Part shown: positions 1-18,338 of the stretch, one piece after another
Layout of the letters: the number at the start of each line of letters is the position of its first letter
Position numbering within the stretch: the stretch's first letter is position 1
From: Candidatus Poribacteria bacterium
GTDB lineage: Bacteria > Poribacteria > WGA-4E > WGA-3G
Assembly (NCBI GenBank): GCA_965204285.1
Contig: OZ241980.1
Coordinates: 261,811-325,810 of the forward strand
Reading direction: 5' to 3'
DNA: 64,000 nt
Notes under the pieces: model-generated
The model's database searches: none
The model's input: only the letters and a program-made list of their open reading frames with translations
Told to the model about the DNA's origin: nothing
Translations under genes and position numbers: made by a program

Positions 1-1784
1 TCCCCGGCGCGCAAAGTGATATGACAATCTACCTTGCTTATACTAACGGTGTATTCCGCACAGATAATGCAGGTAAATCGTGGACGCCACTGTCCGATGA
101 TTTGACAGATAGGAAAATTCATGCAATCGCTGCCGTTGAAAACACCGTCTTTGCTGGTAGCGATAAAGGGCTATATCGCCTTAAATCAGAGAATTGGGAA
201 CAGTTGCCAGTAGGCGGTAAAGTGGAAAATATTCGAGCGTTGGCAAGTGCTGAACACCGACTCTATGTTGCCGTAGGAAAGGAGTCTAAAAATCAAATAA
301 CTTCTCAATTCTTGTCAATGATGACAACCCAAAAGGCATCCAAATCGCTTTATCGGTCAACAGACTTGGGAAAATCATGGAAATCAATAGACCCTGAAAA
401 AAGTCCTATGAAAATGTCTGGAAAAACGAGTATTCGGTTCTCTGACAAAAATAATTCAGAATCTACTAACACAGTAAGAATAATTGCACACCAAGATAAT
501 CTATTAGTCATTAATCTGGGTGATAATTCTTTTTTAAATGATTCTTATTACTCAAATGATGCCGGTAATAATTGGAATATCTTGCCACTAAGTTTTTCAG
601 ATAGTGACTCACTACCTGCAATCACAATGTTGAACAAAAACACATTCTACAGCAGTGGAAATGGTAGCATCTATCACACAACTAATGCTGGCAAGACATG
701 GCGTCAACTGAATACTGGGTTGGTGAATTCTTTCGTTATGAATTTAGTCGCTGTTAATGGTGCCCTCTATGCAAACATAGGGTCTGAACTTGTTGCCTCA
801 TCTGACGGTGGTGAATCGTGGACAACTGTACTTGGTAGAATAAGCAGCATCAATGGCATGGTTGAATCCAATGGTGTTCTCTATGTCAAAGGTTCAAAGA
901 ATCTGACACCACACCTTTACCGCTTGTCTTTTAACAACCAGGTAACCCCTGTCCCCGGCATGCCGAATTTTAAGGCTCCGGACTTTAACAAGTTGATGGA
1001 CGAAAAAATCGGTAAAGCATTTCTTGCCACACTTCAGGAGGATGCTCAGAAAGACCTTGCAGCAGAAAAGAAGATAAATCCTGAACATTTTGATGCAGAA
1101 ACGTTCAATGAAACCTACAATAAGATTGTGCAGGAAAATCTAAAAAAGTCATTTCAAGTTTCTTTTGGCAGTTTTGCTGTCAGCGGAGCAACCTACTATA
1201 TGGAGTCCGGAAGGAAACTGTTCAGATGGAAACCAGGTACTTCTGAATGGTACGACACAGGATTAGAAGATGAAGGTGGATCTGATCACTTTTATGGGAA
1301 AATCGACGATTTTGATTCTATTCGTTTCAAGATTGCCGTATCGGGAGACACTGTTTACGTCGGCAAAAGAGATGGACACCTCATGCTATCGCATGATGAA
1401 GGTGACATTTGGAACGATGTCACCACAACACTTCCATTTTCTGTTGGACGTTTCAATGCTATTACTTTCGCTGGGCAAACTGTCTATGTGGCTACCGACA
1501 AAGGTGTTGTGTGGTCAAACAATGGGACTAAATGGCACACACTCATTGATGCAGAAGGAACACCTCTCGCTATGAAAAGGTTGGCAGTGGATGATACAAA
1601 GGTTTACGGCGAATATAACCATAAAATATATCAATTGAATAAGGACTCTGGCAAGTGGCAACAGGTTACGCCAGAAATCCCACAATTTGTTTTCTCTTTT
1701 GACGTTGATGGAGACACACTCTATGTCGGAACAGCAGGACGAGGTGTGCTACGTTTCACACTTGACGATCCCGTGGATCAATAA
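1..1784 (+). CDS. C-terminal part of an ECF-sigma/TM/BNR beta-propeller fusion protein (paralog A); the 5' end lies upstream of the window
   Basis: The reading frame is open from nt 3 and the first Met of the listed ORF is internal. The sequence KSDMTIYLAY... aligns to SESDMTIYLAY in the full-length paralog at 15297-18338. It carries Asp-box-like motifs (SDNAGKSW, STDLGKSW, TTNAGKTW, SSDGGESW, HDEGDIW). Its C-terminus DGDTLYVGTAGRGVLRFTLDD is shared with the paralogs. Confidence 0.7.
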   Translation, partial: PGAQSDMTIYLAYTNGVFRTDNAGKSWTPLSDDLTDRKIHAIAAVENTVFAGSDKGLYRLKSENWEQLPVGGKVENIRALASAEHRLYVAVGKESKNQITSQFLSMMTTQKASKSLYRSTDLGKSWKSIDPEKSPMKMSGKTSIRFSDKNNSESTNTVRIIAHQDNLLVINLGDNSFLNDSYYSNDAGNNWNILPLSFSDSDSLPAITMLNKNTFYSSGNGSIYHTTNAGKTWRQLNTGLVNSFVMNLVAVNGALYANIGSELVASSDGGESWTTVLGRISSINGMVESNGVLYVKGSKNLTPHLYRLSFNNQVTPVPGMPNFKAPDFNKLMDEKIGKAFLATLQEDAQKDLAAEKKINPEHFDAETFNETYNKIVQENLKKSFQVSFGSFAVSGATYYMESGRKLFRWKPGTSEWYDTGLEDEGGSDHFYGKIDDFDSIRFKIAVSGDTVYVGKRDGHLMLSHDEGDIWNDVTTTLPFSVGRFNAITFAGQTVYVATDKGVVWSNNGTKWHTLIDAEGTPLAMKRLAVDDTKVYGEYNHKIYQLNKDSGKWQQVTPEIPQFVFSFDVDGDTLYVGTAGRGVLRFTLDDPVDQ

Positions 1785-1820
1785 GCAAGTAACGTTATGT
1801 CCTTTCGCAAAAGCACAACC

Positions 1821-1918
1821 ATTATGGTGAACCTTGAAATGAAAGAGGCACATATTCTGTAGGAGGGAACTCCGATTCCCGACTAAAACGGGTCGCGATT
1901 CGGAGATCGCTCCTACAG
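1821..1918. repeat. REP-like palindromic element, family 1 (arm order Y-X)
   Basis: ctgtaggagggaactccgattcccgac - 8 nt - gtcgcgattcggagatcgctcctacag forms an imperfect hairpin. The 5' flank tatggtgaaccttgaaatgaaagaggcacat is shared with the copy at 15128. Confidence 0.8.
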
Positions 1919-2178
1919 AATATGAAAAGTTGTGAAAAACAACAAAACTTTCACGTAAATAGCACAAGTCTTATATAACATTCACGTAATAATAAAAAGT
2001 ATCAAAATTTTTGAAAACTAAATAACCCTGATTGGAGAGTAATACCTATTTACATATCCTCAATTTTGTGTTATAATATGGATAAGAACATACAAATTTG
2101 ATTCTACATCACTAAAAACATAAAAAATCGTTCTATAACAAACCCGAAACATCTCAAAACAAATAGGTGGTAAGTTCC

Positions 2179-2958: not shown

Positions 2959-3071
2959 AGTTATAATATTCGCTTAGTACATTAACATTTTCCCTCCTCC
3001 ATTAAAACCTTAATTTCTTCCGTTCTTTCCAACTTTTTTTCCTCTTTCCCTTAAAAAATCAATTTTTTCTC

Positions 3072-3154
3072 AAATAATTGCAATTTTTTTTCAAAAAGTG
3101 CAATTATTGCTCTCAAAAATGTGTCTATATATTAAAAGACCAATTTATGAGGGT
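3072..3154 (+). promoter_or_regulatory. 83-bp conserved upstream element, copy A, containing AATTGCA-N16-TGCAATT and the palindrome GCAATTATTGC
   Basis: It is 81/83 identical to 5257-5339. It lies about 215 bp upstream of the start of gene 3369. Confidence 0.6.
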
Positions 3155-3368
3155 ATCTCATTATAGATTTAAAATATAACCCGTTATACTATAGTTGACT
3201 TTACACAATTAACCATGCACCGATGCCTGGCGTGAACTAAAAATTGAGTCCGAAGTAATTCGTCAAGAGTATATAGATATTCATGGAGCAGATGTCTATG
3301 AGCGACAAATGGCAGAAATTGCAAAGCACGATCGATATAAAAATAAGTAATTCAAATAGGGAGTTATC

Positions 3369-4151
3369 ATGTTAAAATCTTTTTTCTTTTCAAAACCTGT
3401 TGTTATCGGAATAGCAATTTTATTATTTGTCTCCACGTTATGTTTCTTATACTATCAATCGGTAATAACATCAATTGAGAAAGAACAAGCCAGCGATGAT
3501 AAGATAATTAAATCGTTAACAGAAGATGTCAAGGACTCCGATACACAGAAAATAAATAACGGTGATATAGATTTGCATGGTGACTCTGATATTGTAACTC
3601 CTGAAATTCCTGTTAAAACTAATAAAGCATTAGGCGCGGATCATGATGATTCGGATGTCGATCCATCTGTACAAGAGAATAAATTAACAATGCCTGATAT
3701 GGTAGAAAAGGAAGTTCGGATGTCTCCGTTTGGATTCGGCGCATATCCTAAAATTCCTGATGTTTACAGAGATTTGGGAGGTGTTCAAGATATATGGGGA
3801 CACTTTGAAGAGTTAGCGAAAACTGATCCTGATCAAGCAAGAATACAGGAACTTGGAGAAAGAGTGTTAGTTAAGTTATGGAATGAAGGACTGCAGCCCG
3901 AAGGTGCAAATTACTCAGAAGGTAAATTCTTTCCGCAGTATCCAAATACTGTATATGTCCAATGGGACACAATAACACTTGAAGATGGATCAACAGAAAA
4001 AATCCCAAGTCGTGTTGTAGGAGATCCGGCATTTTCCCAATTTGATCTCCAGTTTTATGAATCCAATGGACAAGATATTCCAGCTGGATTCAATTTGTTA
4101 GATTATGATAAGGATGGTATTGATCCTTATCAATTTCTCAATTTAAAATAA
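3369..4151 (+). CDS. hypothetical signal-anchored protein, paralogous family with 6191-6970
   Basis: It has an N-terminal TM segment. The C-terminal domain is conserved with 6191-6970 (SPFGFGAYPKIPD ... GIDPYQFLNLK versus SPHGLGPYPKIPD ... GIAPYDFLNLE). Confidence 0.6.
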   Translation: MLKSFFFSKPVVIGIAILLFVSTLCFLYYQSVITSIEKEQASDDKIIKSLTEDVKDSDTQKINNGDIDLHGDSDIVTPEIPVKTNKALGADHDDSDVDPSVQENKLTMPDMVEKEVRMSPFGFGAYPKIPDVYRDLGGVQDIWGHFEELAKTDPDQARIQELGERVLVKLWNEGLQPEGANYSEGKFFPQYPNTVYVQWDTITLEDGSTEKIPSRVVGDPAFSQFDLQFYESNGQDIPAGFNLLDYDKDGIDPYQFLNLK

Positions 4152-4180
4152 AGAGGTTAATTATGAAATACTTTGTTTAG

Positions 4181-4561
4181 ATGGTTCTAATATCAGGGCT
4201 TATTTTAAGCGTAATAACTGTCACATTTGCTGGCAGAAATAATGACTATGATGGATCGTTAAGTGGTCATGTCAGCACATGGCAAGGCAAGAAGGATAAA
4301 CTCCCGCGAGCGTATGCATGTGTGAATGGAGGATATAGAAAGTGGGAGGATGGGACATGGAGCCTTACTGCGTATGTGCCAAATCCGCAAACTCAAGGAT
4401 CTCCCTATGACTCTGGATCAGTGGCGTTTAACTCATGGATCTACGAGTCGCATTATCACAGAGGTCATTTCGGTGGCACGGTGAGTCAGTGTTATGCAGC
4501 CGCATTTTGTAATGCGAAAGAGATGAACGGGCCTTGGAGAACCGTTACAACGAGCTGTTAA
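4181..4561 (+). CDS. hypothetical small Cys-rich secreted protein
   Basis: The ORF has a hydrophobic N-terminus and is followed by a perfect hairpin at 4595-4628. No family was recognised. Confidence 0.3.
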   Translation: MVLISGLILSVITVTFAGRNNDYDGSLSGHVSTWQGKKDKLPRAYACVNGGYRKWEDGTWSLTAYVPNPQTQGSPYDSGSVAFNSWIYESHYHRGHFGGTVSQCYAAAFCNAKEMNGPWRTVTTSC

Positions 4562-5256: not shown

Positions 5257-5339
5257 AAATAATTGCAATTTTTTTTCAAAAAGTGCAATTATTGCCCTCA
5301 AAAATGTGTCTATATATTAAAAGACCAATTTATGAGAGT
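5257..5339 (+). promoter_or_regulatory. 83-bp conserved upstream element, copy B
   Basis: It is near-identical to 3072-3154. It lies about 215 bp upstream of gene 5555-6175, which is followed by 6191-6970. Confidence 0.6.
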
Positions 5340-5554
5340 GTTTTCTTATGGATTTGGTATAATTCAGCTAAGAGAAAAATGGATTGTTTTACCTATCTCT
5401 ATTTAAGACTTTTTATTTGATTTGCTGCGTGTGATACACACATTTTACATTACAGTAGATTTTACAACACATCTTTGGCAGGCGTGTTTTTTTAGGGGAG
5501 GCGCCAACTGGCCAATGTGCACATATTTTACATTTTAATTTGGAGGACGCAAAC

Positions 5555-6175
5555 ATGAAAACCACTCTTAGCACTTTCCCGTACGTTGTCACTCTACTTC
5601 TTGTTGTCTTGTCGTTTGCACTCGGTTGTGGCGACGAAGACGACAACGTTGTTATTATCCAACCAACCGAACCACCGATAGAGGAAGTGATCAAGGAACC
5701 TATAGAAGAAGTTGATGAAAAATTAACGTCTACACAACGCGCACGAAAACTGATGAATGAAGTTAATCAGAAAAGAACAGAGGCATACCAACAAGCAGAA
5801 GAAGAAAATGATTTTACCACGTTGCCTGAAACTTCTGAAGAAATCTTCAAAGAAATCCTCGGATTTGAAGAAAATTTTACAAACAAGTTGCTTGGAACAT
5901 GGGAGGCTGCTCTAAGAGCTGCGTTGGTGGTTAAGCGAATAGATAACGCTACAATGAAAAGGTATGAAAATTTTAAAATCGCTTACTTAGGAAAAATCCA
6001 TCTGCAAAATGGTAAACCTTATTTTGAATTTATCGGTGCTTATGATGACATTATCGCGGAGTATTTGCGAATTCAATTTGAATTTCCTGGCACACCTGAA
6101 GAAAAAATTCTTAATATGTTTGGCGATTCTCTGCTTAGAGGAAACACAGACATAATCTATCCAGAAGGTTTTTAA
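5555..6175 (+). CDS. putative lipoprotein, hypothetical
   Basis: GGAGG lies 7 nt upstream of the ATG at 5555. The signal peptide ends ...SFALGCGDEDD, which is lipobox-like. The mature part is acidic and low-complexity. Confidence 0.5.
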   Translation: MKTTLSTFPYVVTLLLVVLSFALGCGDEDDNVVIIQPTEPPIEEVIKEPIEEVDEKLTSTQRARKLMNEVNQKRTEAYQQAEEENDFTTLPETSEEIFKEILGFEENFTNKLLGTWEAALRAALVVKRIDNATMKRYENFKIAYLGKIHLQNGKPYFEFIGAYDDIIAEYLRIQFEFPGTPEEKILNMFGDSLLRGNTDIIYPEGF

Positions 6176-6190
6176 GCATGGAGGCTTGTC

Positions 6191-6970
6191 TTGTTACGGG
6201 ATATTTTCACCAATAAATGGGTTTTAAGTGCCTTGGCTTTTCTGTTTACTCTGACACTCTGTTGTTGGTTCTATTATCACAACGTTTCCAGCGAAATTGA
6301 GAAAGAACAATTGCGTCTGGATCAACTTATGCAACGCAATACGGATCGTGATAGTGAAAATGTCTTGACAGATAACACCCAACATATAAAGAGGCAAACG
6401 CAAGCAAGTCAACACAAAGATAAACCAAATTCTGACTTCGTCGTGTTGCCAGAGCAAACATCACCCCAAGAAACATCGCATCTCAAAACGCCAGAGAACC
6501 TATCCGATATAGATGAAAAGCGGGATGAAGTTGTTGTATCACCACATGGGTTAGGACCTTATCCTAAGATTCCTGATGGCTGGAATCCGCATGCTTTTGA
6601 TGGCGAGATGACGATTGGTCAAGAATTGATAGAACGTGTCCGTATAAAAATGTTCAATGAAGGCATATATACGTATGGGGGCACCATAGACAACGGAACA
6701 GGTTTGGTGTATCCTATCACGCGCCACCGAGTTTATATTCGATGGGAAGAAGCAGTATTGCCATCGCTCGGTAAAACAAGATATGCCCAGTTGATTCGGG
6801 GACACCCAGATATTGTTGCTAAAATAAAAAGCAACGCACGAGCTCGGTTGTCGGATTTACCAGAACAAATGCGTCCGATCACTGAGGTTGATATACCAGA
6901 AGGTATCAATGTCTTAGCAGAAAGTGATGGCATTGCGCCTTATGATTTTCTAAACCTTGAAAGGGAATAA
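6191..6970 (+). CDS. hypothetical signal-anchored protein, paralog of 3369-4151
   Basis: It has an N-terminal TM segment and a conserved C-terminal domain, as for 3369-4151. Confidence 0.6.
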   Translation: MLRDIFTNKWVLSALAFLFTLTLCCWFYYHNVSSEIEKEQLRLDQLMQRNTDRDSENVLTDNTQHIKRQTQASQHKDKPNSDFVVLPEQTSPQETSHLKTPENLSDIDEKRDEVVVSPHGLGPYPKIPDGWNPHAFDGEMTIGQELIERVRIKMFNEGIYTYGGTIDNGTGLVYPITRHRVYIRWEEAVLPSLGKTRYAQLIRGHPDIVAKIKSNARARLSDLPEQMRPITEVDIPEGINVLAESDGIAPYDFLNLERE

Positions 6971-7000
6971 TCTTTCAATCTATAAAAAGGAAGGAATATT

Positions 7001-7501
7001 ATGAAAAAACTTTCGACGATCACGATCACAACGTTATTTATTTTCGCTGCTGTTCAGATATCAGTGATAGCTGTGAATAATAATGGAACAAGTCATTATC
7101 CATTTGAATTTGGTGTGTATTCAGGCATATCCCGCTATGTCAGCGATACAGATAGCCCTTTAAGTTCATGGGCATGCACTGGGATTTTTAGTCGCTCCGC
7201 AGATGAAGACTTGGGTCTACAACTCATATATAACTGGTCAGCATCCGCAGGTGTTTATTGTTCGGATGGCAATTATCGAGGCAGTTCCGATATGCGTGCG
7301 GATATTATGACATTTTATCGGACGGGCAGTAGTGATTTTGTAGGCGAAGTGAGCGAATATGTGGGTTTTTATGTCCAAATGGAACCACCGCCAGATAACG
7401 TCACTTTGGATATAGAAGATTGCAGTTCCCACGGTGAAATTGATGGTGAAAACCAGATAAATGGTAACTCGCGGAGTTCGCGCTCTGAGATACCATTTTA
7501 A
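7001..7501 (+). CDS. hypothetical secreted protein
   Basis: It begins with a signal peptide (MKKLSTITITTLFIFAAVQISVIA). GGAAGG lies upstream. Confidence 0.45.
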   Translation: MKKLSTITITTLFIFAAVQISVIAVNNNGTSHYPFEFGVYSGISRYVSDTDSPLSSWACTGIFSRSADEDLGLQLIYNWSASAGVYCSDGNYRGSSDMRADIMTFYRTGSSDFVGEVSEYVGFYVQMEPPPDNVTLDIEDCSSHGEIDGENQINGNSRSSRSEIPF

Positions 7502-7514
7502 CCATTACATGTGT

Positions 7515-7542
7515 CTTGCGCGGAGACGTTAAACCCGCGCTC
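7515..7542 (+). repeat. hairpin motif tgcgcgg-agacgttaaac-ccgcgc
   Basis: It lies immediately 3' of the stop of 7001-7501. The same motif recurs at 10100-10127 after the stop of 9845-10087. Confidence 0.5.
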
Positions 7543-7560
7543 TAACAAAAGGAGAATTTA

Positions 7561-7950
7561 ATGAATAACAAATTCTTACAACAATGCATCGCGCTTTCGG
7601 TGCTGTGCTGTATTGTATTAGCATTTATATTAATTATTAATGTAGAGGAAGCCGAATCCTTTATCATATGGTTTATAATTTGGTTGTTGAATAGAGTTAT
7701 AGATGCCGTAGAGGCACTTTGGGATTGGTTTAGCGACATAATCAATAGTATTCCGGCGATTGTGCAATCTATATCAAGATGTGCTACGGCTGTTTCTGCA
7801 TGTATGTCGGCTGTGCAGGAAGTATATGACGCTTTACAGATAGCTGAAGATGATCCGACATTATCGAATGTTTCTGCTGTATCGGCTAAAATTGCAGTTG
7901 CATACAATACATGTGGTGACGTGTGGGGCGAATGTTTCCCAGATGATTGA
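7561..7950 (+). CDS. hypothetical small membrane protein, Cys-containing
   Basis: AAAGGAG lies upstream. There are two predicted hydrophobic helices. Confidence 0.45.
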   Translation: MNNKFLQQCIALSVLCCIVLAFILIINVEEAESFIIWFIIWLLNRVIDAVEALWDWFSDIINSIPAIVQSISRCATAVSACMSAVQEVYDALQIAEDDPTLSNVSAVSAKIAVAYNTCGDVWGECFPDD

Positions 7951-8011
7951 CCTAATGGCAGCGCAAGCTTTCAACATAAAATTGCGCTGCCTCAACAAAA
8001 GGAGAATATAA

Positions 8012-8746
8012 ATGAAATTCCGACTAATGTTTTCTCTTAGCCTTTTAATACTTTTTTTGGGATGTGGCAGTAGTGATGATAACAGTGAGACACATTGGAA
8101 TGTCATAAATCAGGAAATACCAGAAGCCGATGTCATTCATAGCAATAAAGCTGAAGAGGTCCTTGCACAACTAAAACAAGAATTTGCAGGCGATATTCTT
8201 GATGATGATTTTCAGACAATCAAAGAACTCACGAATTCTCCAACCTATCTGAAGTTCATTTCGCAGGATGTTGAATATGGGTCATTTATGGATTATGTGG
8301 ATGCGAATATTCCACCAAAACACTGGTTTCAAGAACTAATTGAAAATTGGATCGACAACCCTGAAGATGCGGATTATTTAGTCACATATTATATCGTATC
8401 TAATGGTCGACATGGAAGAGCTCTTGAATACCAAGGTGAACCGGAAGGTACTGCTGATGAATTAATGACTGAGACGTTCGCCGAACCCCACGTATGGGCA
8501 TGGTTGAATGGACGTTTTCCAGATAATCGCGCATTTGTATTGTTTACAGTTGAGCTCGCTATTAGAGAAAGACAGTTAGAAGAAGAAGATATTTCAATAT
8601 GTGATGGATTAATTAATGATTTTGGACAGGATGATGGAATGATCATGTTCGCTTTAAACTATCCATTCAGGTTGCCTCAAATTTTAAATGATTTCAGTGA
8701 CATAGATATTTTCCTGAAATGGACAAAGGGAGAGTTTACTAAATGA
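8012..8746 (+). CDS. putative lipoprotein, hypothetical, acidic
   Basis: AAAGGAG RBS. The signal peptide ends LILFLGCGSSDD. The stop overlaps the next start as ATGA. Confidence 0.5.
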   Translation: MKFRLMFSLSLLILFLGCGSSDDNSETHWNVINQEIPEADVIHSNKAEEVLAQLKQEFAGDILDDDFQTIKELTNSPTYLKFISQDVEYGSFMDYVDANIPPKHWFQELIENWIDNPEDADYLVTYYIVSNGRHGRALEYQGEPEGTADELMTETFAEPHVWAWLNGRFPDNRAFVLFTVELAIRERQLEEEDISICDGLINDFGQDDGMIMFALNYPFRLPQILNDFSDIDIFLKWTKGEFTK

Positions 8747-9456
8747 AGCGCAAGTATTTTTTATATGTTTTAATTTCTATGGCCTTTATAATTCTCTGTA
8801 TATGGTTTTCTATACTTGATAAGCAAATTAAACAAAATATATCTGATCCGGTGACTGTGACAGAAACTAAGGTCAACGAATCTATCTCAATGCCAATAAA
8901 AAAGGCATTTGACACCAAAAAACCTCAGAATAAAAAATCGACGATTGGACAAGAATATAAAGATGTTATTTTGAGTTTTCTTCCATCCCACATGCACGAT
9001 TCTCCTGAAATGAAAAAAATCTTAGCGGTTTTCGAAAGTGAAGAATTTGAGACATTTATAAAAAATAATCCCCAAGGACTCGGTGACTTTTACGACTTCT
9101 TTCAATCACAAGGATTACCTCTGGATAAGAATGAATTATTTGCTGAATATGATAACGATTTCAAAAAATTATTTCCGAATCACACGACAGAACAAATTGG
9201 AGAACTTTTACATTTAGACCTTTTTGCTCGATTTCTTGAAAACGATGTGTATGTCCATTTCTATGAAGACGAAGCACATGGTTTAGAAACTTTTGAAAAT
9301 GTTCTGACGGATTTTACTCTGGAGTCCCATAATAAAATCTGGATGAACGCTCATTTCAAGGGAAATCATCGTGATTTTGGTGTGTGGGCAATGAATGTTC
9401 TTCAGGACCTGAGTATCTTTGAAATGGATAAAGATAAAATACGTCCCTACCTTTGA
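8743..9456 (+). CDS. hypothetical signal-anchored protein
   Basis: Its start overlaps the stop of the previous gene as ATGA, suggesting translational coupling. It has an N-terminal TM segment. Confidence 0.45.
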   Translation: MKRKYFLYVLISMAFIILCIWFSILDKQIKQNISDPVTVTETKVNESISMPIKKAFDTKKPQNKKSTIGQEYKDVILSFLPSHMHDSPEMKKILAVFESEEFETFIKNNPQGLGDFYDFFQSQGLPLDKNELFAEYDNDFKKLFPNHTTEQIGELLHLDLFARFLENDVYVHFYEDEAHGLETFENVLTDFTLESHNKIWMNAHFKGNHRDFGVWAMNVLQDLSIFEMDKDKIRPYL

Positions 9457-9848
9457 ACAAATTTCGTGCATACTTAACTCCTGAAGAAAATGAAACCCTA
9501 CGGGCACTGATGAATCAAGAGGATAAAAATACACCCGTTCCCACTCTTGATACTTCAGACGATATAATAACCGAAACTGTTACCAACACACCAATACCGC
9601 CTGTAACTCAAGATACATCTACCAAAACTGCTATACCCGAAAATACTCATGTATCTCATGATAAGAGATTCAGGAGTAGTCTTCATAAAACTTTTGAACA
9701 ATTTAAGGACTCAAATGTTCGCTTCCGATCCGCAATGCAGATCGTAGAACAATACGGTGTCCAAGAAGGACTCCATCAGATCAGAGAAAATGATCCTGAG
9801 ATGGCAATAATTGTTGAACGTTATCTGAAACAACAGGAGAAAAAATGA
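9453..9848 (+). CDS. hypothetical protein; start uncertain (TTG at 9453 or ATG at 9509)
   Basis: It is an in-frame ORF within a coupled gene string. It contains a Thr/Pro-rich linker. Confidence 0.35.
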   Translation: MNKFRAYLTPEENETLRALMNQEDKNTPVPTLDTSDDIITETVTNTPIPPVTQDTSTKTAIPENTHVSHDKRFRSSLHKTFEQFKDSNVRFRSAMQIVEQYGVQEGLHQIRENDPEMAIIVERYLKQQEKK

Positions 9849-10087
9849 AAAAACTGTATTTTTTCTTCTCTATAGCAGTGCTCATTATATTTGTTGCTAT
9901 CTTGTATGTTGTGGGTCATGCAACGGATACAACGTTAACAGACCCACTCAAAGAAGAAACTTCAATTAGTGTAACAGAGTCTGTAAAATCGAAAACGATT
10001 AAGAAAGGTTGTGGATGTTGTGAAAATCGTATGAAACGGTTAATGAAGAAATATAGAAATAAGAAAGCGGCAGCAAGTTCAAAGTAA
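9845..10087 (+). CDS. hypothetical small membrane protein with a GCGCC motif
   Basis: It has an ATGA overlap with the upstream gene and a single TM helix. The recurrent hairpin 10100-10127 follows it. Confidence 0.4.
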   Translation: MKKLYFFFSIAVLIIFVAILYVVGHATDTTLTDPLKEETSISVTESVKSKTIKKGCGCCENRMKRLMKKYRNKKAAASSK

Positions 10088-10099
10088 CAATTCATGCGT

Positions 10100-10496: not shown

Positions 10497-12658
10497 TCAA
10501 TTAAAACCGAAATAAATAACGTTCAGAGTCGTTCAGTTTAAGGTTTTATCTTTACTTTAGCATGGTCGCGCCCAGGAGTTTCGCTCCTATAGTAAGATAT
10601 CCTTGTAAGAAGGTAGAAACCATTGGAAAATTGAATGGCTCTGAAGCGCGTTTATACAACTTCAATCAGTTCAAATCTGATGAGATTTTCCGTAAATTCA
10701 AAATCATTTTTTAATTGACTTATACTTTTAAATTCTAATTATGTTATACTAATCCTTGTAAAATGTAATACGCTCCAATTTGATTGTGAGATAACCTATG
10801 CAATACAATGATGCTGACCTGATTCAACGCACCTTAGAAGGTGATCAGCAAGCTTTTACGGATCTTGTGGAAAAATACCAAAAACAGATACACGCGTTGG
10901 CGTGGCAGAAGATTGGTGATTTTCACATTGCACAGGAAATTACGCAGGACGCTTTTTTAACTGCGTATCAAAAACTCGCGACGCTCACACATCACAGCCA
11001 GTTTTCAGGATGGATCTATGCTATTACCAGCAATAAGTGCAAAAATTGGCGGCGAAAGAAAAGACTGGCATTTCAATCCTTACAAACAATAGATCCTGTT
11101 GAATTAGAGGAGGTGTATTATTCAGAGTATATGACTAAACAACGCGAAGAAGCAGTAAATCGAAAACGACGCGCTATTGTGCAGAAATTGTTAAGTAAGC
11201 TGCAAGAGAGTGACCGCACCATCGTAAATCTATTTTACATCGCAGAAATGACCTGTGAGGATATTGGAAGGTTTTTAGGTGTATCTCCTAACACCGTCCG
11301 TAGTAGACTCCACCGCGCACGCAACCGATTAAAGAAGGAAGAAGCGATGATTAAAGAAAACTTAAGTAGTTTCCAATTGCCAACACAATTAACTGAAAAC
11401 ATTATGAAAGAGATTTCACACCTTAATCCAGTAGCACCTTCAGGAAACAGACCTCTGGTGCCAATAGTTGTTTCTGCCGCCTCAGCCATTTTAGTACTAT
11501 TGCTGATGGGTGCTGGCACACAATACTTAAATCGTTTTCAGAAACCGTATAGCTTAAACGCACAATCAGAACCGACAATTGAAATAACAGAGACACAACT
11601 TGTCATTGACATGCCAGCAGAACCTGCAGTACGCAACCAGATTGGACGTTCAGATGTCCCAGGCCAAAGTGACGGTGCGGGACAGAAACCAGACACACCA
11701 CTATTCGCTGCAGCACAAGCGGATGATGCCGAAATTTTAAAGGTAAAGCCGCAGTGGGTTAAAACAAAAGGATTTGAAGGCGGTGTAATTAATTCACTTT
11801 TCTCAACAACGCGTAGAGACATTTTTGCAGAGACTACTACAACTCTCTACAAACTCTCAGACAATGGAACGAGATGGAAACCTGTCAAAATATGGTATGC
11901 ACCTTCACTTAGATGGACAGATTGGTCAATAGGTGGCAGACGGATGGTTGAGTCGAACGACACACTCTACATCGTCACAAATGAAGAAATTTGGGCATCC
12001 GTTGATAGAGGAGAGACATGGAATTCACTTGGAACACATCCCGAAGGACCGCCAATAGGTATGGTAAGAACCGATGCAGGGTTTTATCTTGGCCTTGCCG
12101 ATGGGATTTACAGATCTGAAGATGGTATGGCACCGTGGATATCTCTAAAAGATGGAATGGAACCAGGAAAAATTAAGGCGATTGCTGCAGTGGAAAACAC
12201 AGTTTTTGCAGGGACCAATAACGGACTCTATCGTCTCAAAACAGGTGTATGGGAAAAAGTATCAATTAATCAGCCAGATAATACAGAACAAAATCAGGTT
12301 ATCCATGCACTGGCAGTTTCTGAACGCCAACTTTATGCAGCAGTAGGAAAGAAGTTTGAATATAGGTCGGGAAAGCAGCATCAATTAGAACTTACAAATG
12401 ATTCTTGGTGGTCACTCTATCGCTCTAATGATTTTGGTAATTCATGGGATTCCATAGATCCAAGGAAAAGACCATTAAACGAGATAAAATCGAAAAGTGA
12501 AGTGCCAATCAATTTTCCACCCAATGGTGTCAATGTAGCATTAGGTGCAAACCTAAAGATAATAGCGGAAAAAGAAAAAGTTATGGTTGCTGTCCCATCA
12601 GAATTATTCTACTCAATCGATACTGGTGAGACATGGAATTACTTCAGTTTAAATGATA

Positions 12659-13671
12659 ACGTGAGTTTGATAAATAGTATTAGAAATTACATATCATTGG
12701 CAACTGATAGTCATTTTCTTTAAGTTCTTTATGTTTAAGTGAAGGTTTTTTCTGTAGACAGGTATAAGCGATCAAGGCAGCAACTGCATTCACTTGAAAG
12801 TTAACAGGACTTCTATGGCGTGTGTGTTGTATCTCTGTCTGACTTTTAAGTTCTTTATTCACCGACTCAATAAGCATGCGTTTTTTTAGAAGTGCTGCAT
12901 CAGCATCAGACAAAGGTTCAGGTTTCATATTCTTACGCACCTTGTAAATGAGCGTCACACCGTCTTCTTGGAGTCTCTCCCGCAGATTTTTGTTGATATA
13001 CCCTTTATCGGCAAATAGTTTGCCAAAGAGCCCTTGACACAACTGTGGCACGGTTCGCCTGTCATCTACGTTTCCCGCTGTCACCATAGCGGACAAGAGT
13101 TCACCTTGGTCGTTGATGACGAGATGTAGTTTAAACCCATAGAACCATCCCATAGAGGTTTTAGAACGCTCCGCATAATCAATGAAGACGCGATGCGCTG
13201 AAATCCGGCGATTGTGGCAGACCGGCAGCGGTGTTGAGTCTATGAAGGAAATGCCACGACACTTACCGAAACGGGTGTTGAGAAAAATAGACAACAAAAC
13301 CAATACCTCTTGTGAGAGCTGCACAAAACGACTATAGCTGACAAGGTTCGGAAACGCCCAACGCAGATGGAAACAGACATAATCCTGATAATACGCTTTA
13401 AAGTTTTTATACTGCTTCTGATGAAAAAGCACAAGTATCGTCATGACTTCGCTCGGATGAAGGCGCCGGGGTCTGCCCCGTGTGTTGTTTGTTCCGGGTA
13501 TGTCCGGCAACTGGTATTGTGCTTGATATTGTTCATACGTAAGAAAAAAGTCGTCAATTTCACAGAAAAGTGTTATGATATCCATCAGAGAACTCCTTTG
13601 TAAGTATAATGGTATACTTCATCATAACAAAGGGGTTCTCTATTTACCAGTTTTTAATTATCAAACTCACG
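12659..13671 (-). mobile_element. IS982-family insertion sequence (1013 bp)
   Basis: It has perfect 15-bp terminal inverted repeats (acgtgagtttgataa ... ttatcaaactcacgt). A 10-bp direct repeat, ttaaatgata, flanks it on both sides. It encodes one 301-aa transposase. Confidence 0.75.
12680..13585 (-). CDS. IS982-family DDE transposase
   Basis: The 301-aa product begins MDIITLFCEIDDFF and contains a GFKLHLV block and later acidic residues typical of IS982/IS4-like transposases. AAGGAG RBS. Confidence 0.65.
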   Translation of the reverse strand: MDIITLFCEIDDFFLTYEQYQAQYQLPDIPGTNNTRGRPRRLHPSEVMTILVLFHQKQYKNFKAYYQDYVCFHLRWAFPNLVSYSRFVQLSQEVLVLLSIFLNTRFGKCRGISFIDSTPLPVCHNRRISAHRVFIDYAERSKTSMGWFYGFKLHLVINDQGELLSAMVTAGNVDDRRTVPQLCQGLFGKLFADKGYINKNLRERLQEDGVTLIYKVRKNMKPEPLSDADAALLKKRMLIESVNKELKSQTEIQHTRHRSPVNFQVNAVAALIAYTCLQKKPSLKHKELKENDYQLPMICNF

Positions 13672-15052
13672 TTAAATGATAGGTTAGGTGCCAGAATTCC
13701 TTCCCTTGTTCTGATGTTGGATGCAAAGACTTTCTATAGAGTTGGCGAGGCAGGCATTTATCGTACAACCGATGGGGTTAAATCGTGGCATCTGCTTAAT
13801 ACTGGATTATCAAGTGCAACCGTTACAAATATAGTCGCGATTAAAAACCGCGTCTACGCAAAAACAACCGATGAAGTTGTTACTTCAACTGATGGTGGTG
13901 AATCGTGGAGACCGCTACCTATTGATGCTAAAAATATCTTTGTAATGGCAGGATTCAACAATGAACCATATATAAGGCAATATATGAGGAACTTAAAGAA
14001 CGCACCGCCTATTCTACGTTTATCCATTGAGGACAATGAACTTACCCCTATTCCGAATATGCCTGTCTCTGAGGGATTCGATTACATTTTCCAAGAACGA
14101 ATTCCTCCATATTTGATACAATTGGGAAGTTTCGCTGTTAGCGGTGATACCTACTATGTGGAATCTGGACAGAAACTTTACAGATGGAAACTTGGTACAT
14201 ATAAATGGTACAACACAGGTGTAATGGATAAAATGAAACAACCTGATCGCCGCCATAGGGCTACCATGTCTAATGATTATCCGATTGGTATTTCTTCATT
14301 TTTTGTTTCACCCGATTTAATGAGTTTTAAAATTGCAGTTTCAGGCGAAACTATTTACGTCGGCAAACGGGATGGGCATCTCATGCACTCACTTGATGAA
14401 GGAGTTACTTGGAACGATCTTACTGATCATCTACCATTTTCTGTTAAAAGTTATAAATCAATAGTTTGCGCTGGAAACTTTGTCTTTGTGGCAACTGATA
14501 AAGGTGTTATACTGTCTGGCAATGGTGTTGACTGGCACATACTCACAGATATAGAAGGGACACCTCTTATAACAAATAAATTAGTGGTGGATGATATAGC
14601 GGTTTACTGTGAGGCTAAGCAAAAAATATATCAATTGAACAGGAACACGGGCATCTGGCAACCGGTTACACCAGAAATACCATATCCTGTTTCCAGTTTT
14701 GATGTTGATAATGACACGCTTTATGCCGGAACTTTTGGTGGGGGCGTGCTACGTTTTTCACTTGATAATCAGAATTGAGTGATGCATTTATAATATCTCC
14801 AATATTCGATTCACATTGAATTAATATTTCTCCAAGCGGGATAAAATCCCGCTTTTTTAGTTTAAGTTAAATTTATAGAATTTAAGCATTTACTTGTTTT
14901 CTGCTATAATAATTGCAACACTTATAAAATCTGAAGAGCGCAATAAAATTGATCCTACTTCTGAAAACGAACTGGCTACGTAACCCATAAATATAATTTC
15001 ACCATCTTGCCAATCTTTCCTAAAAAAATCTATAAAATTCATATTCTTTCTA

Positions 15053-15085
15053 AAAATTGCATTTTTTTTCAAAAAAGTGCAATAT
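15053..15085 (+). promoter_or_regulatory. AATTGCA-N16-TGCAAT inverted repeat, third occurrence, upstream of the intact sigma-fusion gene
   Basis: It has the same half-sites and the same T8-C-A6 spacer as the 83-bp elements at 3072 and 5257. Confidence 0.45.
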
Positions 15086-15127
15086 CTAATCAGAAAATCG
15101 CGTTTATAATTACAGAAGGTTCTTTCA

Positions 15128-15230
15128 TTGTATGGTGAACCTTGAAATTAAAGAGGCACATTTTCTGTAGGAGCGATCTCCGAATCGCGACAAAACTCAC
15201 TGATAGTCGGGAATCGGAGTTCCCTCCTAC
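15128..15230. repeat. REP-like element family 1 (arm order X-Y)
   Basis: ctgtaggagcgatctccgaatcgcgac - 14 nt - gtcgggaatcggagttccctcctac. Its 5' flank tatggtgaaccttgaaattaaagaggcacat is shared with 1821. Confidence 0.8.
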
Positions 15231-15296
15231 GCCTCAAAATGTCCTGTTAATTCTAAAGGTCACTATAATTGAATTTTTCTATATCTAAGGTGTACG

Positions 15297-18200
15297 ATGA
15301 AAAACGATGATTCTGAACTAATTCAACGCACATTAGAAGGTGACCAACACGCTTTTGCTCTACTCGTAGAAAAATACCAAGAGCAGGTACACACCCTTGC
15401 GTGGCAAAAAATTGGTGATTTTCACATTGCACAAGAAATCACGCAAGATGTTTTCCTCACTGCATATCAAAAATTCTCGACCTTCACACACTACAGACAA
15501 TTTGCAGGATGGCTCTATGTTGTTACAAACCGAAAGTGCATTGCATGGCACCGGAAGAAAAAAATAAAAACACAATCAATTGATGAGACAAATCCAATTG
15601 AGTTGGAGGAAGCATATTATACAGAATATATGGCGCATCAGCGGGAAGAATCAGCAAAAGAAAAACGCCGCACTATAGTTCATAAACTGCTCAGCAAGCT
15701 AAAGGAAAGTGACCGTACAGTGATGAACCTCTATTACATCGCTGAAATGTCATGTGAAGAAATTGCTGAGTTTTTGGGTGTATCTCCCAATACGGTTCGG
15801 AGTAGACTCCACCGCGCACGCAACCGATTAAAGAAGGAGGAAGCAATGATTAAAGAAAATCTCAGCAGTTTCCAACTGCCAACACAATTAACTGAAAACA
15901 TTATGAAGGAAATTTCACGTCTCAATCCAGCGGCACCTTCTGGAAATAAACCACTTGTGCCGATAGCAGTTTCTGCCGCCGCTGCAGTTTTAGTCTTAAT
16001 GCTGATAGGGACTGGGATGCAATACTTAAATCGTTTTCAGAAACCGTATAGCTTAAACGCACAATCTGAGCCGACGATTGAGATAACAGAGACACAACTT
16101 GTCATTGACACACCAGTAAAACCGTCTGTACGGACTCAGGTTGGGAAATCTGATGTAACAGGTAGAACAGAAGGGGCAGGTCAAAAACCGGACGCGCCAC
16201 TATTGGCTGCAGCACAAGTGGATGAAGATGAAATATCAAAACCGATACGGCAATGGAGAGATGCAAAAGGACCGGAAGGTGGTGCAGTTGGTACTCTCTT
16301 CACAACAAACAGCGGTGACGTGTATGCAACGTCAAAAAACGGTCTCTACAGACTCACAGGTGATGGAAAAGCATGGAAACTCATAAACACTATTAAATAT
16401 TCTTCCGGTGATGCACTAACAGGAAGGAATGTATTTCGACATGTAGCAGAATGGCAGAATACATTCTACCGTGCTATTGATACAAAAATCTTCGCTTCTA
16501 CAGATAGAGGCGCGACATGGAAAGAATTTTGCGAGTGTATAAAAGGTGATCTTGTTGGTATGGTGATAACAGGAAGTAATCCAGAATCTGAAAGCGATAT
16601 GACAATCTACCTTGCTTACAAGAAAGGAGTCTTCCGTTCAGATAATGCTGGCAAATCGTGGACACCACTACCCGAAGGTATCAACGATAGACAAATTGGT
16701 GTAATCACTAATATAGGAAATACTGTTTTTGTCGGTACTGACAAAGGACTTTATCGTCTTAACGCTGATAAATGGGAACAATTGTCCATCGCTCAAGCAG
16801 ATACGAAAGAAAACACGCTACCTATTATTGCGATGGAAGTTGCAGAAAATAGCCTCTATGTTGTTACAAGGAAAAGTATATTTGGAGATCCTGATCCATT
16901 ATACACAAGTTTCGGTTTGTCGCGTGTAAGAATCAATTCTCGGATACCAAGAATTGGATTTAAACCTCGTGAACCATACGTGTGGTCAATCTTTCGTTCA
17001 GATGATATAGGCAATTCATGGAAAACTATTACGCCAGATAGCAACAATATAAAGAAGAAACCAGGGCAAAAGCCAAAAATCTCCAATATATTTCCACCAC
17101 GTAAGAACGAAGGCGATGCTCCCTTTATAACATCTCTGGATACAACCTTCAAAATGTCTGCAGCGGTGGGAAAGGTGGTAGTAATAGATGGTGAGGCATT
17201 CTTTTTTTCTATCAATGCTGGTGAAACTTGGAGAACCGTAGACAAAACGGCTAATATAGGTAAGACTTCTGGTTTGGCATTGTTAAATGAGAATACTATC
17301 TATGTATCTGGAAGATTCGGAATTTATCGCTCGACTGATGGCGGAGAATCATGGCATGAATTTAATACCGGTTTAGTGAACACAGAAGTTCGGGAATTAA
17401 TTGCTGTTAAAGGAACCCTCTACGCAAACACAAGAACTGGACTTTTCAGTTCTGTTGACGGTGGAGAATCGTGGATACCTGTTCCAGGCGATACTGGCTA
17501 TCTCACGCGTTTGGCGAAATTTAACGAGGAGCTCTATGTAAGAGATGATAAAATCGGTGCACCCCGGTTTTTCCGCTTTTCCGCCAAAGACAATAGACTC
17601 ATGGACATCTCAGAAATACCTGCCTTTAAAAAAGTTGATTTTCATAAAGAAGTACGTGAGAAACCAATTCAGGATAGAGGACCTATAACATCGGTACCAC
17701 ACGGAAAGGGAAGTTTTTATACGTTGATGCTTGGTAGCTTTGCTGTCAATGATGGAACGTATTATGTGGAATATATGCAAAAACTCTTCAAATGGAAATC
17801 TGGTATACCTGAATGGTCCAACACTGGATTATTAGATAAAATTGGTATCGAGAAAAATTGGTATTCCAATAACTTATTCGATTCTATTGGCTTTAGGCTT
17901 GCTGCCTCAGAGAATAATGTTTACGTTGGAAAATGGGATGGTCATCTCATGCAATCGTTTGATGAAGGCAACACATGGAATGATGTCACCGCGAATCTTC
18001 CATTTTCTGTCGTCCATTTTAGGGCAATAGTTTTCGCTGGAAACTTTGTTTATGTCGCAACCGACAAGGGCGTCGTGCTGTCAGGCAACGGCAATGACTG
18101 GCACATACTCACTGATGCAGAAGGGGCTGCTCTTGTTATGAATAGATTAGCAGTGGATGACACGACGGTTTACGGGGAATCTAAGCGAATAGTTTACCAA

Positions 18201-18338
18201 CTGAACAGGAATTCTGGCACGTGGCTGCAAGTCACGCCAGAAATTTCATATCCTGTTAACTGTCTTGCTGTTGATGGGGATACGCTTTATGTCGGTACAG
18301 CTGGATCCGGGGCACTCCGCTTTTCGCTTGATAATTAA
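15297..18338 (+). CDS. ECF sigma-70 domain / single TM / BNR-Asp-box beta-propeller fusion protein (intact paralog C, 1013 aa)
   Basis: The N-terminus has sigma-70 region 2 (LVEKYQEQVHTLAWQKIGDFHIAQEITQDVFLTAY) and region 4 (DRTVMNLYYIAEMSCEEIAEFLGVSPNTVRSRLHRARNRL). A hydrophobic helix follows (LVPIAVSAAAAVLVLMLIGTG). The rest is about 750 aa with repeated S-x-D-x-G-x-(S/T)-W motifs. Confidence 0.8.
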   Translation: MKNDDSELIQRTLEGDQHAFALLVEKYQEQVHTLAWQKIGDFHIAQEITQDVFLTAYQKFSTFTHYRQFAGWLYVVTNRKCIAWHRKKKIKTQSIDETNPIELEEAYYTEYMAHQREESAKEKRRTIVHKLLSKLKESDRTVMNLYYIAEMSCEEIAEFLGVSPNTVRSRLHRARNRLKKEEAMIKENLSSFQLPTQLTENIMKEISRLNPAAPSGNKPLVPIAVSAAAAVLVLMLIGTGMQYLNRFQKPYSLNAQSEPTIEITETQLVIDTPVKPSVRTQVGKSDVTGRTEGAGQKPDAPLLAAAQVDEDEISKPIRQWRDAKGPEGGAVGTLFTTNSGDVYATSKNGLYRLTGDGKAWKLINTIKYSSGDALTGRNVFRHVAEWQNTFYRAIDTKIFASTDRGATWKEFCECIKGDLVGMVITGSNPESESDMTIYLAYKKGVFRSDNAGKSWTPLPEGINDRQIGVITNIGNTVFVGTDKGLYRLNADKWEQLSIAQADTKENTLPIIAMEVAENSLYVVTRKSIFGDPDPLYTSFGLSRVRINSRIPRIGFKPREPYVWSIFRSDDIGNSWKTITPDSNNIKKKPGQKPKISNIFPPRKNEGDAPFITSLDTTFKMSAAVGKVVVIDGEAFFFSINAGETWRTVDKTANIGKTSGLALLNENTIYVSGRFGIYRSTDGGESWHEFNTGLVNTEVRELIAVKGTLYANTRTGLFSSVDGGESWIPVPGDTGYLTRLAKFNEELYVRDDKIGAPRFFRFSAKDNRLMDISEIPAFKKVDFHKEVREKPIQDRGPITSVPHGKGSFYTLMLGSFAVNDGTYYVEYMQKLFKWKSGIPEWSNTGLLDKIGIEKNWYSNNLFDSIGFRLAASENNVYVGKWDGHLMQSFDEGNTWNDVTANLPFSVVHFRAIVFAGNFVYVATDKGVVLSGNGNDWHILTDAEGAALVMNRLAVDDTTVYGESKRIVYQLNRNSGTWLQVTPEISYPVNCLAVDGDTLYVGTAGSGALRFSLDN

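Follow-up and report, generated by a model that had tools for sequence, protein, structure and literature searches.

The 64,000-nt window analysed here (contig OZ241980.1 of assembly GCA_965204285.1, positions 261,811 to 325,810 of the forward strand) comes from Candidatus Poribacteria, a group of sponge symbionts that have not been cultured and are known to degrade glycans. It carries three tandem paralogs, here called A, B and C, each of which joins an extracytoplasmic function (ECF) sigma domain, one membrane helix and an ectodomain of about 770 aa, and which may act as receptors with a built-in sigma factor. An earlier, sequence-only reading of the same DNA had proposed this one-chain layout from three open reading frames (ORFs), and all three were found where it had placed them: copy C has an unbroken frame of 1013 aa, an insertion sequence (IS) splits copy B, and the window edge cuts copy A. 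The translation of copy A equals residues 429-1021 of the 1021-aa database protein P0059 exactly; its N-terminal 428 aa lie outside the window, and the gene itself is intact. A single contig of 5,076,652 bp holds P0059 (A), P0001 (C) and P0094, which is a fourth paralog. In 119 aligned members a single polypeptide runs from a sigma domain through one membrane helix to a C-terminal domain outside the membrane, and the architecture was seen again in more than 100 independent assemblies, a recurrence that rules out an assembly or gene-calling artefact.

Both sigma regions that had been read from the letters, 2 and 4, were recovered by profile searches with Pfam and NCBIfam. In copy C, residues 23-89 match the Pfam model Sigma70_r2 and residues 127-178 match Sigma70_r4_2, with a further match to Sigma70_ECF; in the paralogs all three models exceed their cut-offs, with 39-45 bits for Sigma70_r2 and 48-56 bits for Sigma70_r4_2, and the general NCBIfam ECF model TIGR02937 reaches 96.4 bits against a cut-off of 42.9. 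No Pfam match was obtained for sigma region 3, and the composition is that of ECF (group 4) factors, with regions 2 and 4 present and regions 1.1 and 3 absent. The specific NCBIfam ECF equivalogs all remain far under their cut-offs, including those for SigW (PRK09641, 102 against 209 bits; TIGR02948, 93 against 243 bits), and the nearest solved sigma structure is that of Bacillus subtilis SigW (5wuq, E 3.7e-23, residues 9-181). The N-terminal 180 aa make up an entire sigma factor of the ECF type (group 4), with SigW as the nearest match. Among the 119 members the recognition helix of region 4.2, VSPNTVRSRLHRAR, and the motifs of region 2 are invariant or nearly so, and for this reason the paralogs probably share one promoter specificity.

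Between sigma region 4 and the start of the membrane helix there are only 38 residues (183-218), a length that is constant in 96 of the 101 members measured. The mean pairwise identity of this linker, 0.75, equals that of the sigma regions (0.73-0.77) and exceeds that of the stalk outside the membrane (0.47). A class I anti-sigma domain takes some 80-90 residues (in RsiW of 5wuq it covers residues 1-80), and a 38-aa linker is far too short for a normal one. Neither a FecR-type nor a ZAS domain of about 80-90 aa, as expected before the helix in hybrid sigma/anti-sigma proteins, nor any other anti-sigma domain was found by Pfam in residues 182-331, even at E values up to 5, and a search of the linker against the PDB returned noise only. 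Alignment of the family profile to RsiW 1-77 with hhalign gave one local, non-significant match, in which family residues 190-207 (SSFQLPTQLTENIMKEIS) are paired with RsiW 55-72 (SHVEAPADFTANVMAKLP) over 18 columns (E 0.11, 28% identity); the two segments are about equally far from their membrane helices, and the match is a lead only.

The membrane helix that had been proposed between the sigma domain and the ectodomain corresponds to the only 19-residue window above a Kyte-Doolittle value of 1.6 in all 1013 residues of copy C (about residues 219-241). Its invariant residues are P219, P222, S226, G238 and G240, and site-2 protease substrates require helix-destabilising residues. The stalk that follows starts with the conserved motif RFQKPYSLNAQSE.TIEI and continues into a low-complexity segment that is predicted to be disordered, with a predicted local distance difference test (pLDDT) value below 35. 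From the hydrophobicity and the need for a cytoplasmic sigma domain we infer an N-in/C-out topology.

Pfam matches, the count of Asp-boxes and an AlphaFold2 (AF2) model agree with the earlier reading of the ectodomain as a BNR/Asp-box propeller within the same polypeptide. Six to eight repeats had been proposed, and copy C contains seven clear S/T-x-D/N-x-G-x-x-W boxes and one weak box, repeats of the S-x-D-x-G-x-T/S-W type that sit on propeller blades. Sortilin-Vps10 scores 44.8 bits against a cut-off of 33, BNR and BNR_6 are near their cut-offs, PSII_BNR and DUF6242 also match the C-terminal part, and the precomputed label on all homologs is PF25852 (DUF6242_C). In the AF2 model, built with 119 homologs, residues 320-1013 are confident (pLDDT mostly 80-95) and form about 14 four-stranded blades. 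The best Foldseek matches of this model in the PDB are the GH74 xyloglucanases 2cn2, 2cn3, 6p2o and 5fkq (E about 1e-22, target template modelling score (TM-score) 0.51-0.56), and the second-ranked group consists of the double-propeller periplasmic sensors of the Bacteroides hybrid two-component systems BT4673, BT4663 and BT3049. A profile of 43 ectodomains retrieved 2cn2 from the PDB at E 5.9e-22 and 3ott at E 1.5e-7; with a single sequence the same search gave matches at the level of Asp-boxes only, GH74 being reached by the family profile alone. On model and profile, the ectodomain is therefore predicted to be a GH74-like tandem of two propellers, a more specific assignment than a generic BNR propeller.

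The fold of GH74 is accompanied by the loss of its first catalytic residue. The GH74 motif YARAD-IGGAYR of 2cn2 aligns to YAGT[QRLKH][SN]GLYR in the family, and 2cn3, presumably the D70A catalytic mutant, has Ala where the 2cn2 motif has Asp. Across the 119 members the column aligned to the first catalytic Asp (residue 347 in copy C) holds Q, R, L, K, H and in a few cases Glu, with no conserved acid, and the pseudo-equivalent positions 673-674 of propeller 2 are equally variable. Because the first catalytic Asp is absent, the ectodomain is most probably a non-catalytic module that binds rather than cleaves. As to the ligand, a host or environmental glycan is a guess from the fold and from the biology of the organism.

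The family has so far been found, as judged from database matches, only in Candidatus Poribacteria. The first protein search gave more than 100 full-length homologs (47-79% identical), and every named source was Candidatus Poribacteria. In a species-representative collection (one genome per species) there are 484 relatives; the locus-level counts given here and below cover the best 70 loci of these, 15 kb each, whose named sources are Poribacteria metagenome-assembled genomes, with the single-cell genome WGA-3G included. About 30 of the 70 loci carry two or three family genes in tandem, and truncated copies are present in several of the 70, so that amplification and gene death are typical of the family. 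The earlier reading had considered the local amplification unusual; the amplification itself is confirmed, and it is not peculiar to this locus, tandem copies being typical across Candidatus Poribacteria. In five loci (L012, L016, L041, L042 and L053), truncated family genes of 83-238 aa sit behind intact family promoters, pointing to frequent pseudogenisation in these arrays, as in the IS-split copy B. An ectodomain search of the representative library retrieved 589 proteins at E<=1e-30. Among the top matches about 60 clusters (50% identity) are sigma-fused, the match beginning near residue 318, and matches weaker than about 1e-60 are unrelated long multi-repeat BNR proteins that share Asp-box segments only. 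P0161 and P0166 were considered as stand-alone ectodomains and set aside, both being shorter and looking like truncated gene calls. Across the family the sigma domain, the linker and the helix are near-constant while the propellers diverge, and the tandem paralogs are therefore probably a sensor array with differing ligand specificities and one shared promoter type.

A candidate promoter was obtained by k-mer enrichment in 119 unique 200-nt regions upstream of family genes. The consensus, AATGCAA(C/T)-N17/18-CGTC(T/A), lies 40-70 nt before the ATG and is followed by a GGAGG-type ribosome-binding site; the exact form TGCAAY-N17/18-CGTC occurs in 46 of the 119 regions. Cognate promoters of ECF factors combine an AAC-type -35 element with a CGT-type -10 element and are usually autoregulatory, and the consensus is of this kind; we infer that the free sigma factor would recognise TGCAAY-N17/18-CGTC promoters. 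A position weight matrix (PWM) built from these sites was scanned over both strands of 1.01 Mb, comprising the 70 loci and the window, and gave 103 matches, all on the strand of the family genes and 0 on the other. Directly upstream of full-length family genes lie 77 of the 103 (a partly circular count, as discussed below), and about 8 more precede truncated copies; the remaining matches are mostly found before small proteins with N-terminal hydrophobic segments, along with a few TPR and STAS proteins. Promoters in front of most family members imply positive autoregulation.

Within the window, PWM sites were found before copy C and before two operons of the neighbouring gene islet, in keeping with the expectation of ECF-type promoters upstream of paralogs and islet genes; upstream of copy B there was no PWM match, only a degenerate resemblance. 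Modules 1 and 2 differ at 1 of 40 positions, and the sites at 3099, 5284 and 15078 have in common the extended block AATTGCAATTTTTTTTCAAAAAGTGCAAT-N17-[TGTC/CGTT]TATA; the 40-mer of module 1 also stands before non-family genes in three further genomes (L027, L029 and L035). The first ORF of candidate operon 1, at 3369, is paralogous to the ORF at 6191-6970 (BLASTP, 29% identity, E 2e-24), and neither operon 1 ORF has a Pfam, NCBIfam or PADLOC match. In candidate operon 2, almost every protein begins with a membrane helix or a lipoprotein-like signal. In two other loci (L048:4102 and L060:13535) a promoter of the family type stands before the gene of a small, STAS-domain-like protein similar to anti-anti-sigma factors, which hints at an extra regulatory layer in some lineages.

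Taken together, these features are consistent with a model in which ligand-controlled regulated proteolysis frees an autoregulated sigma factor, a model drawn by analogy that we regard as about evenly balanced between right and wrong. In the resting state the sigma domain would be held at the membrane. Binding of a ligand in the propeller cleft would open the stalk to a site-1 protease, a site-2 protease would next cut the membrane helix with its Pro and Gly residues, and the freed sigma domain would then direct RNA polymerase to TGCAAY-N17/18-CGTC promoters, those of the family genes (positive autoregulation) and those of adjacent operons of small exported or membrane-anchored orphans.

Several observations weigh against this reading. 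The release step is argued by analogy, from the precedents of IutY, ECF48/52/53 and RsgI together with the composition of the helix and the disordered stalk, and a search of the rest of the window for a site-2 protease or another signalling partner turned up ordinary metabolic genes only. The AF2 model shows no helix at the membrane segment (pLDDT below 35 for residues 211-316). With respect to the ectodomain, the profile alignment does not cover the region of the second GH74 catalytic Asp of 2cn2, and some residual enzymatic activity is possible. As for the promoters, the PWM was trained on family upstream regions, making the 77 family matches partly circular, while the non-family matches and the strand bias are independent of this. 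The exact motif TGCAAY-N15-19-CGTC has two chance-level matches in the window, the real sites having surfaced only with the PWM, and none of the three window sites carries the consensus CGTC (two have TGTC, one CGTT). The distance from modules 1 and 2 to the next ORF is 256-270 nt, and both modules could be what is left of lost paralogs. Another sigma factor could also read the promoters.

The main rival to proteolytic release is that the sigma domain works unreleased, bound to the membrane together with core RNA polymerase and acting on nearby genes, with co-translational insertion keeping the locus at the membrane; the signal would pass as a conformational change or dimerisation through helix and linker, as in regulators of the ToxR/CadC type or in the Bacteroides hybrid two-component sensors. 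A tether alone may not inhibit a sigma factor for which no anti-sigma domain was detected, the conserved linker of fixed length fits a mechanical or conformational coupler, the candidate targets adjoin family genes and encode membrane or exported proteins, and the fold matches include hybrid two-component double-propeller sensors, which signal without proteolysis. Nevertheless, we regard this rival as unlikely: no precedent was found for a membrane-anchored sigma factor active in holoenzyme, the invariant Pro and Gly residues of the helix are a feature of site-2 protease substrates, a disordered stalk of about 75 aa would be poor at passing conformational signals, and the characterised fused ECF protein, IutY, requires proteolytic release (PMC8999054).

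Control by a partner protein and a residual enzymatic role are both ranked as less likely than an active, tethered sigma factor. In the former, activity would be governed mainly by the periplasmic PD40 propeller, the DUF4159 protein or an unlinked soluble anti-sigma factor, not by a propeller ligand alone, and the propeller would be a docking platform, like a FecR-type periplasmic domain on its outer-membrane transducer. This is improbable in our estimation; DUF4159 genes occur in 17 and PD40 genes in 10 of the 70 family loci, and STAS-type genes stand behind a family promoter in L048 and L060, but most loci are without DUF4159 or PD40 neighbours, and divergent propellers combined with constant cytoplasmic parts fit a diversification of ligand sites better than a single docking partner. 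In the latter, the ectodomain would be a working GH74-type glycosidase or a surface adhesin, and the sigma domain would only couple expression of the whole protein to its turnover instead of serving a dedicated sensor. The significant profile and fold similarity to GH74 enzymes speaks for such a role, as do the sulfatase and sulfatase-maturing enzyme of the window, which fit a glycan-degrading lifestyle, and a sub-threshold match to the NCBIfam model 'F510_1955 family glycosylhydrolase'. That match is under its cut-off, however (109 against 175 bits), and the position of the first catalytic Asp varies without a conserved acid, as does its equivalent in propeller 2, which makes an enzyme or adhesin very improbable. 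Proteolytic release is the reading preferred here.

The fate of copy B illustrates the loss of genes from such arrays. An element of 1014 bp at 12659-13672 has broken the gene into ORFs 10798-12723 and 13609-14778; it has perfect 15-nt terminal inverted repeats, ACGTGAGTTTGATAA, and is flanked at 12650-12658 and 13673-13681 by a 9-bp target duplication, TAAATGATA. The transposase on its minus strand scores 249 bits against a cut-off of 130 with the NCBIfam IS982 model NF033520 and matches DDE_Tnp_1_3 at E 9e-68; a DDE transposase, terminal inverted repeats and a target duplication, the marks of the IS982 family, are thus all present. Excision in silico of the element and one duplicate restores an uninterrupted ORF of 985 aa. 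From end to end it shares 88% identity with an unbroken ortholog from a different Poribacteria genome (L036:980-3931), and the junction sequence is the same in both. On this evidence, the insertion that killed copy B is recent, the remainder of the gene being undecayed. A terminator scan and a sigma-70 consensus scan of the window were at shuffle level overall, and only the hairpin 3' of copy B was used.

The nearly identical stretches of B and C noted in the earlier reading (11521-11610 and 16021-16110) were one base out of register; between 11522-11610 and 16021-16109, 85 of 89 positions are identical and all four differences are synonymous. A recent duplication had been suggested as one origin and is ruled out, B and C being only 54% identical overall; the other suggestion, gene conversion, stood. 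The sigma region of B is 94% identical to that of its L035 ortholog and 76% identical to that of C, whereas for the 96-nt juxtamembrane tract the values are 72% and 92%, respectively, and the L036 ortholog of B also has a tract of the C type. This discordant pattern, together with the C-type tract in L036, marks the stretch as a short gene-conversion tract older than the split between the window and L036 genomes.

Table 1. Positions of the paralogs, their predicted parts and other features in the window.
Feature	Position	Strand	Details
Paralog A, C-terminal part	3..1784	+	593 aa, covering propeller 2 in full and propeller 1 in part; Sortilin-Vps10 and PSII_BNR matches
REP/MITE-like palindromic element, copy 1	1824..1920	+	3' of paralog A
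DUF4159 protein, N-terminal hydrophobic segment	2167..2958	+	Pfam PF13709, E 1.6e-50
ECF promoter-like module 1	3094..3133	+	-35 TGCAAT 3099-3104, 17-nt spacer, -10 TGTC 3122-3125; PWM 25.9
Candidate regulon operon 1, two orphan ORFs (260 and 126 aa)	3369..4561	+	First with N-terminal membrane helix
ECF promoter-like module 2	5279..5318	+	-35 TGCAAT 5284-5289, 17-nt spacer, -10 TGTC; PWM 25.9
Candidate regulon operon 2, about eight co-oriented small orphan ORFs	5540..10087	+	
Paralog B, 5' part	10798..12658	+	Sigma domain, linker, membrane helix, stalk, propeller 1, start of propeller 2
IS982-family insertion sequence	12659..13672	-	1014 bp; transposase ORF 12680-13585; NF033520, DDE_Tnp_1_3
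Paralog B, 3' part	13682..14778	+	Remainder of propeller 2; joined to 10798-12658 gives intact 985-aa ORF
Terminator-like hairpin and T-run	14834..14854	+	3' of paralog B
ECF promoter-like module 3, 5' of paralog C	15073..15112	+	-35 TGCAAT 15078-15083, 17-nt spacer, -10 CGTT; PWM 18.6
REP/MITE-like palindromic element, copy 2	15132..15240	+	Inserted between promoter module 3 and paralog C ATG
Paralog C, predicted sigma-membrane helix-double-propeller protein	15297..18338	+	Intact ORF, 1013 aa; 100% identical to database protein P0001
Predicted ECF sigma core of paralog C	15363..15830	+	Region 2 (23-89), extended linker, region 4 (127-178); Pfam, NCBIfam
Cytoplasmic juxtamembrane linker (residues 183-218)	15843..15950	+	Fixed length; conserved like sigma domain
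Single predicted membrane helix (residues 219-241)	15951..16019	+	Kyte-Doolittle scan, invariant columns
Extracytoplasmic stalk (residues 242-316)	16020..16244	+	Juxtamembrane motif, low complexity; holds B/C gene-conversion tract
Ectodomain, predicted tandem beta-propellers	16245..18335	+	Propeller 1 about residues 317-640, propeller 2 about 641-1013; AF2, Foldseek, profile
PD40 (TolB-like) beta-propeller protein, signal-like N-terminus	18603..19673	+	Pfam PD40, E 6e-41

Some other features of the window deserve mention (Table 1). By tblastn, orthologs of the DUF4159 gene are found in 17 of the 70 Poribacteria family loci, as a conserved downstream neighbour, and the PD40 gene is near family genes in 10 of them. 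The two copies of an element resembling repetitive extragenic palindromes or miniature inverted-repeat transposable elements (REP/MITE-like) are about 100 nt long and have their central arms swapped, and their 30-nt head matches at both places, 0 chance matches being expected. A different hairpin-forming repeat (ctgtagcgcaaactgttagtttgcg...cacaaactaacagtttgtgctacac) lies at 18381-18450, just 3' of copy C, and may be a terminator or another REP-type element. Just 5' of copy B, at 10212-10496, a 94-aa ORF has a weak staphylococcal-nuclease-like match (E 0.002). Farther away, the minus strand encodes a UvrD/REP-type helicase (26008-27723) with a GIY-YIG nuclease domain match inside its N-terminal region (residues 133-206), as well as adjoining genes for a Uma2-family putative restriction endonuclease and a Fic/DOC-family protein amid metabolic genes (49546-51341), a pair that may be a small toxin or defence module. 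Taken together, 22637-23458 and 53696-55177 hold an FGE-sulfatase (sulfatase-maturing) gene, a sulfatase gene, several PhyH dioxygenase genes and several GFO/IDH/MocA oxidoreductase genes, which is the repertoire for degrading sulfated glycans that typifies sponge-associated Poribacteria.

Carried further, these results allow a broader scenario, possible but doubtful as a whole, in which the family would be a set of Poribacteria-specific receptors, each a tethered sigma factor without an anti-sigma domain that is joined to a dead, GH74-like, glycan-binding double propeller. The paralogs would keep one promoter specificity and diversify their sensors, gene conversion would homogenise the signalling module, and the resulting array with many inputs and one output would read glycans of the sponge matrix or of particles and switch on fast-evolving small exported proteins. 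If true, ECF regulation would here take a direct-tether form unlike all those based on anti-sigma factors, and the system would offer a handle on host sensing by uncultured sponge symbionts. The family would serve as a test of whether membrane tethering alone can control a sigma factor and of how many sensors can share one promoter specificity. Moreover, it is a marker-like, expanded trait of Candidatus Poribacteria whose ligands and orphan exported regulon offer an entry point to host sensing in symbiosis, and its compact single-gene design could become a programmable receptor-to-promoter module.

In most cases the control of an ECF sigma factor falls to an anti-sigma factor made as a protein of its own, and fused versions are rare; to our knowledge, IutY is the only fused ECF protein that has been characterised experimentally. 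In IutY (ECF243) of Pseudomonas putida, one membrane helix links the N-terminal half, with its ECF sigma domain, to a periplasmic domain, and the release of its sigma domain by Prc and RseP has been shown experimentally (PMC8999054). It resembles the family in carrying a sigma domain, a single membrane helix and a C-terminal extracytoplasmic domain in one chain. Unlike the family, IutY has a FecR-type anti-sigma domain between sigma domain and helix and works with a TonB-dependent transducer, whereas in the family there are only 38 residues from sigma domain to helix, no detectable anti-sigma domain, a double propeller and no TonB-dependent receptor nearby. In ECF52, the C-terminal extension of Streptomyces coelicolor SCO4117 crosses the membrane and ends in an extracytoplasmic carbohydrate-binding domain, and activation by proteolysis has been proposed (PMC8999054; PMC5826349); release by regulated proteolysis is predicted for ECF48, ECF52 and ECF53 (PMC8999054). 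These three groups share with the family an ECF sigma domain with a membrane-crossing C-terminal extension, but they are actinobacterial and have a zinc-finger (ZAS-type) anti-sigma domain, a proline-rich region and no propeller. Their extensions reach about 400 residues at most, compared with 830 in the family, and large paralog arrays are not noted in these sources.

Fusion of an ECF sigma domain to propeller-type repeats is known from ECF57/ECF01-Gob of Planctomycetes, a lineage related through the Planctomycetes-Verrucomicrobia-Chlamydiae (PVC) group, where a WD40-like C-terminal extension is found and regulation through protein interaction has been proposed, sigma regions 2 and 4 being joined by conserved cysteines (PMC8999054). 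The earlier reading had already drawn this comparison; the repeats there are WD40-like, those of the family Asp-box/GH74-like. SigW-RsiW of B. subtilis (ECF30) provides the closest solved sigma factor, and the best local match of the linker is to RsiW (non-significant, as given above); the system differs in consisting of two separate proteins, of which RsiW has a full zinc-binding anti-sigma domain. SigW reads TGAAAC-N16-CGTA, a similar promoter, and RsiW is removed by site-1 and site-2 proteolysis.

On the side of the ectodomain, GH74 xyloglucanases such as Clostridium thermocellum Xgh74A (2cn2/2cn3) likewise have tandem propellers with Asp-box repeats; the family differs from them in having no conserved first catalytic Asp, in a sequence identity of 13-15% and in propellers that are anchored to a sigma factor rather than belonging to a secreted enzyme. 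BT4663, BT4673 and BT3049 also join an outside double propeller through the membrane to a transcription output in one polypeptide, and the PDB title of BT4663 gives it as a sensor of heparin/heparan sulphate. These Bacteroides hybrid systems use a histidine kinase, a receiver and an AraC-type output, with no sigma factor and no proteolysis; global superposition on them is poor (target TM-score about 0.3), the resemblance is one of local fold and profile, and the Pfam scans of the family reported no Reg_prop (PF07494), Y_Y_Y, histidine kinase, receiver or AraC-type modules. A further parallel is SigI-RsgI of C. thermocellum, in which several paralogous membrane sensors with varied polysaccharide-recognising domains control sigma factors by regulated intramembrane proteolysis (PMC10328401, PMC12203970). 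As portrayed there, the likeness lies in paralogous sensors with differing outside domains that control sigma factors, and the difference in separate sigma and anti-sigma proteins, a non-ECF sigma-I and a sigma partner of its own for each RsgI. The site-1 cut of RsgI is described there as autoproteolysis in a folded periplasmic domain, which has no counterpart in the family, where the stalk is predicted to be disordered.

A literature search for BNR, ECF and sigma-factor proteins of Poribacteria found no description of the sigma-membrane helix-propeller architecture, and the main text of the 2021 ECF re-classification (PMC7826278) mentions neither Poribacteria nor BNR/propeller extensions. The family could belong to an existing numbered ECF group. 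The sequence-only reading had called the architecture unusual, and the case is less exceptional than that suggests: the BNR/GH74-like version is undescribed in the literature searched, but the general kind is already known from IutY, ECF52/SCO4117, ECF48/53 and ECF57 (PMC8999054). What is known already is thus an ECF sigma factor fused via a membrane helix to an outside domain; what appears to be new in the family is the combination of no detectable anti-sigma domain, a degenerate GH74-type double propeller, an expansion restricted to Poribacteria and a near-invariant sigma module.

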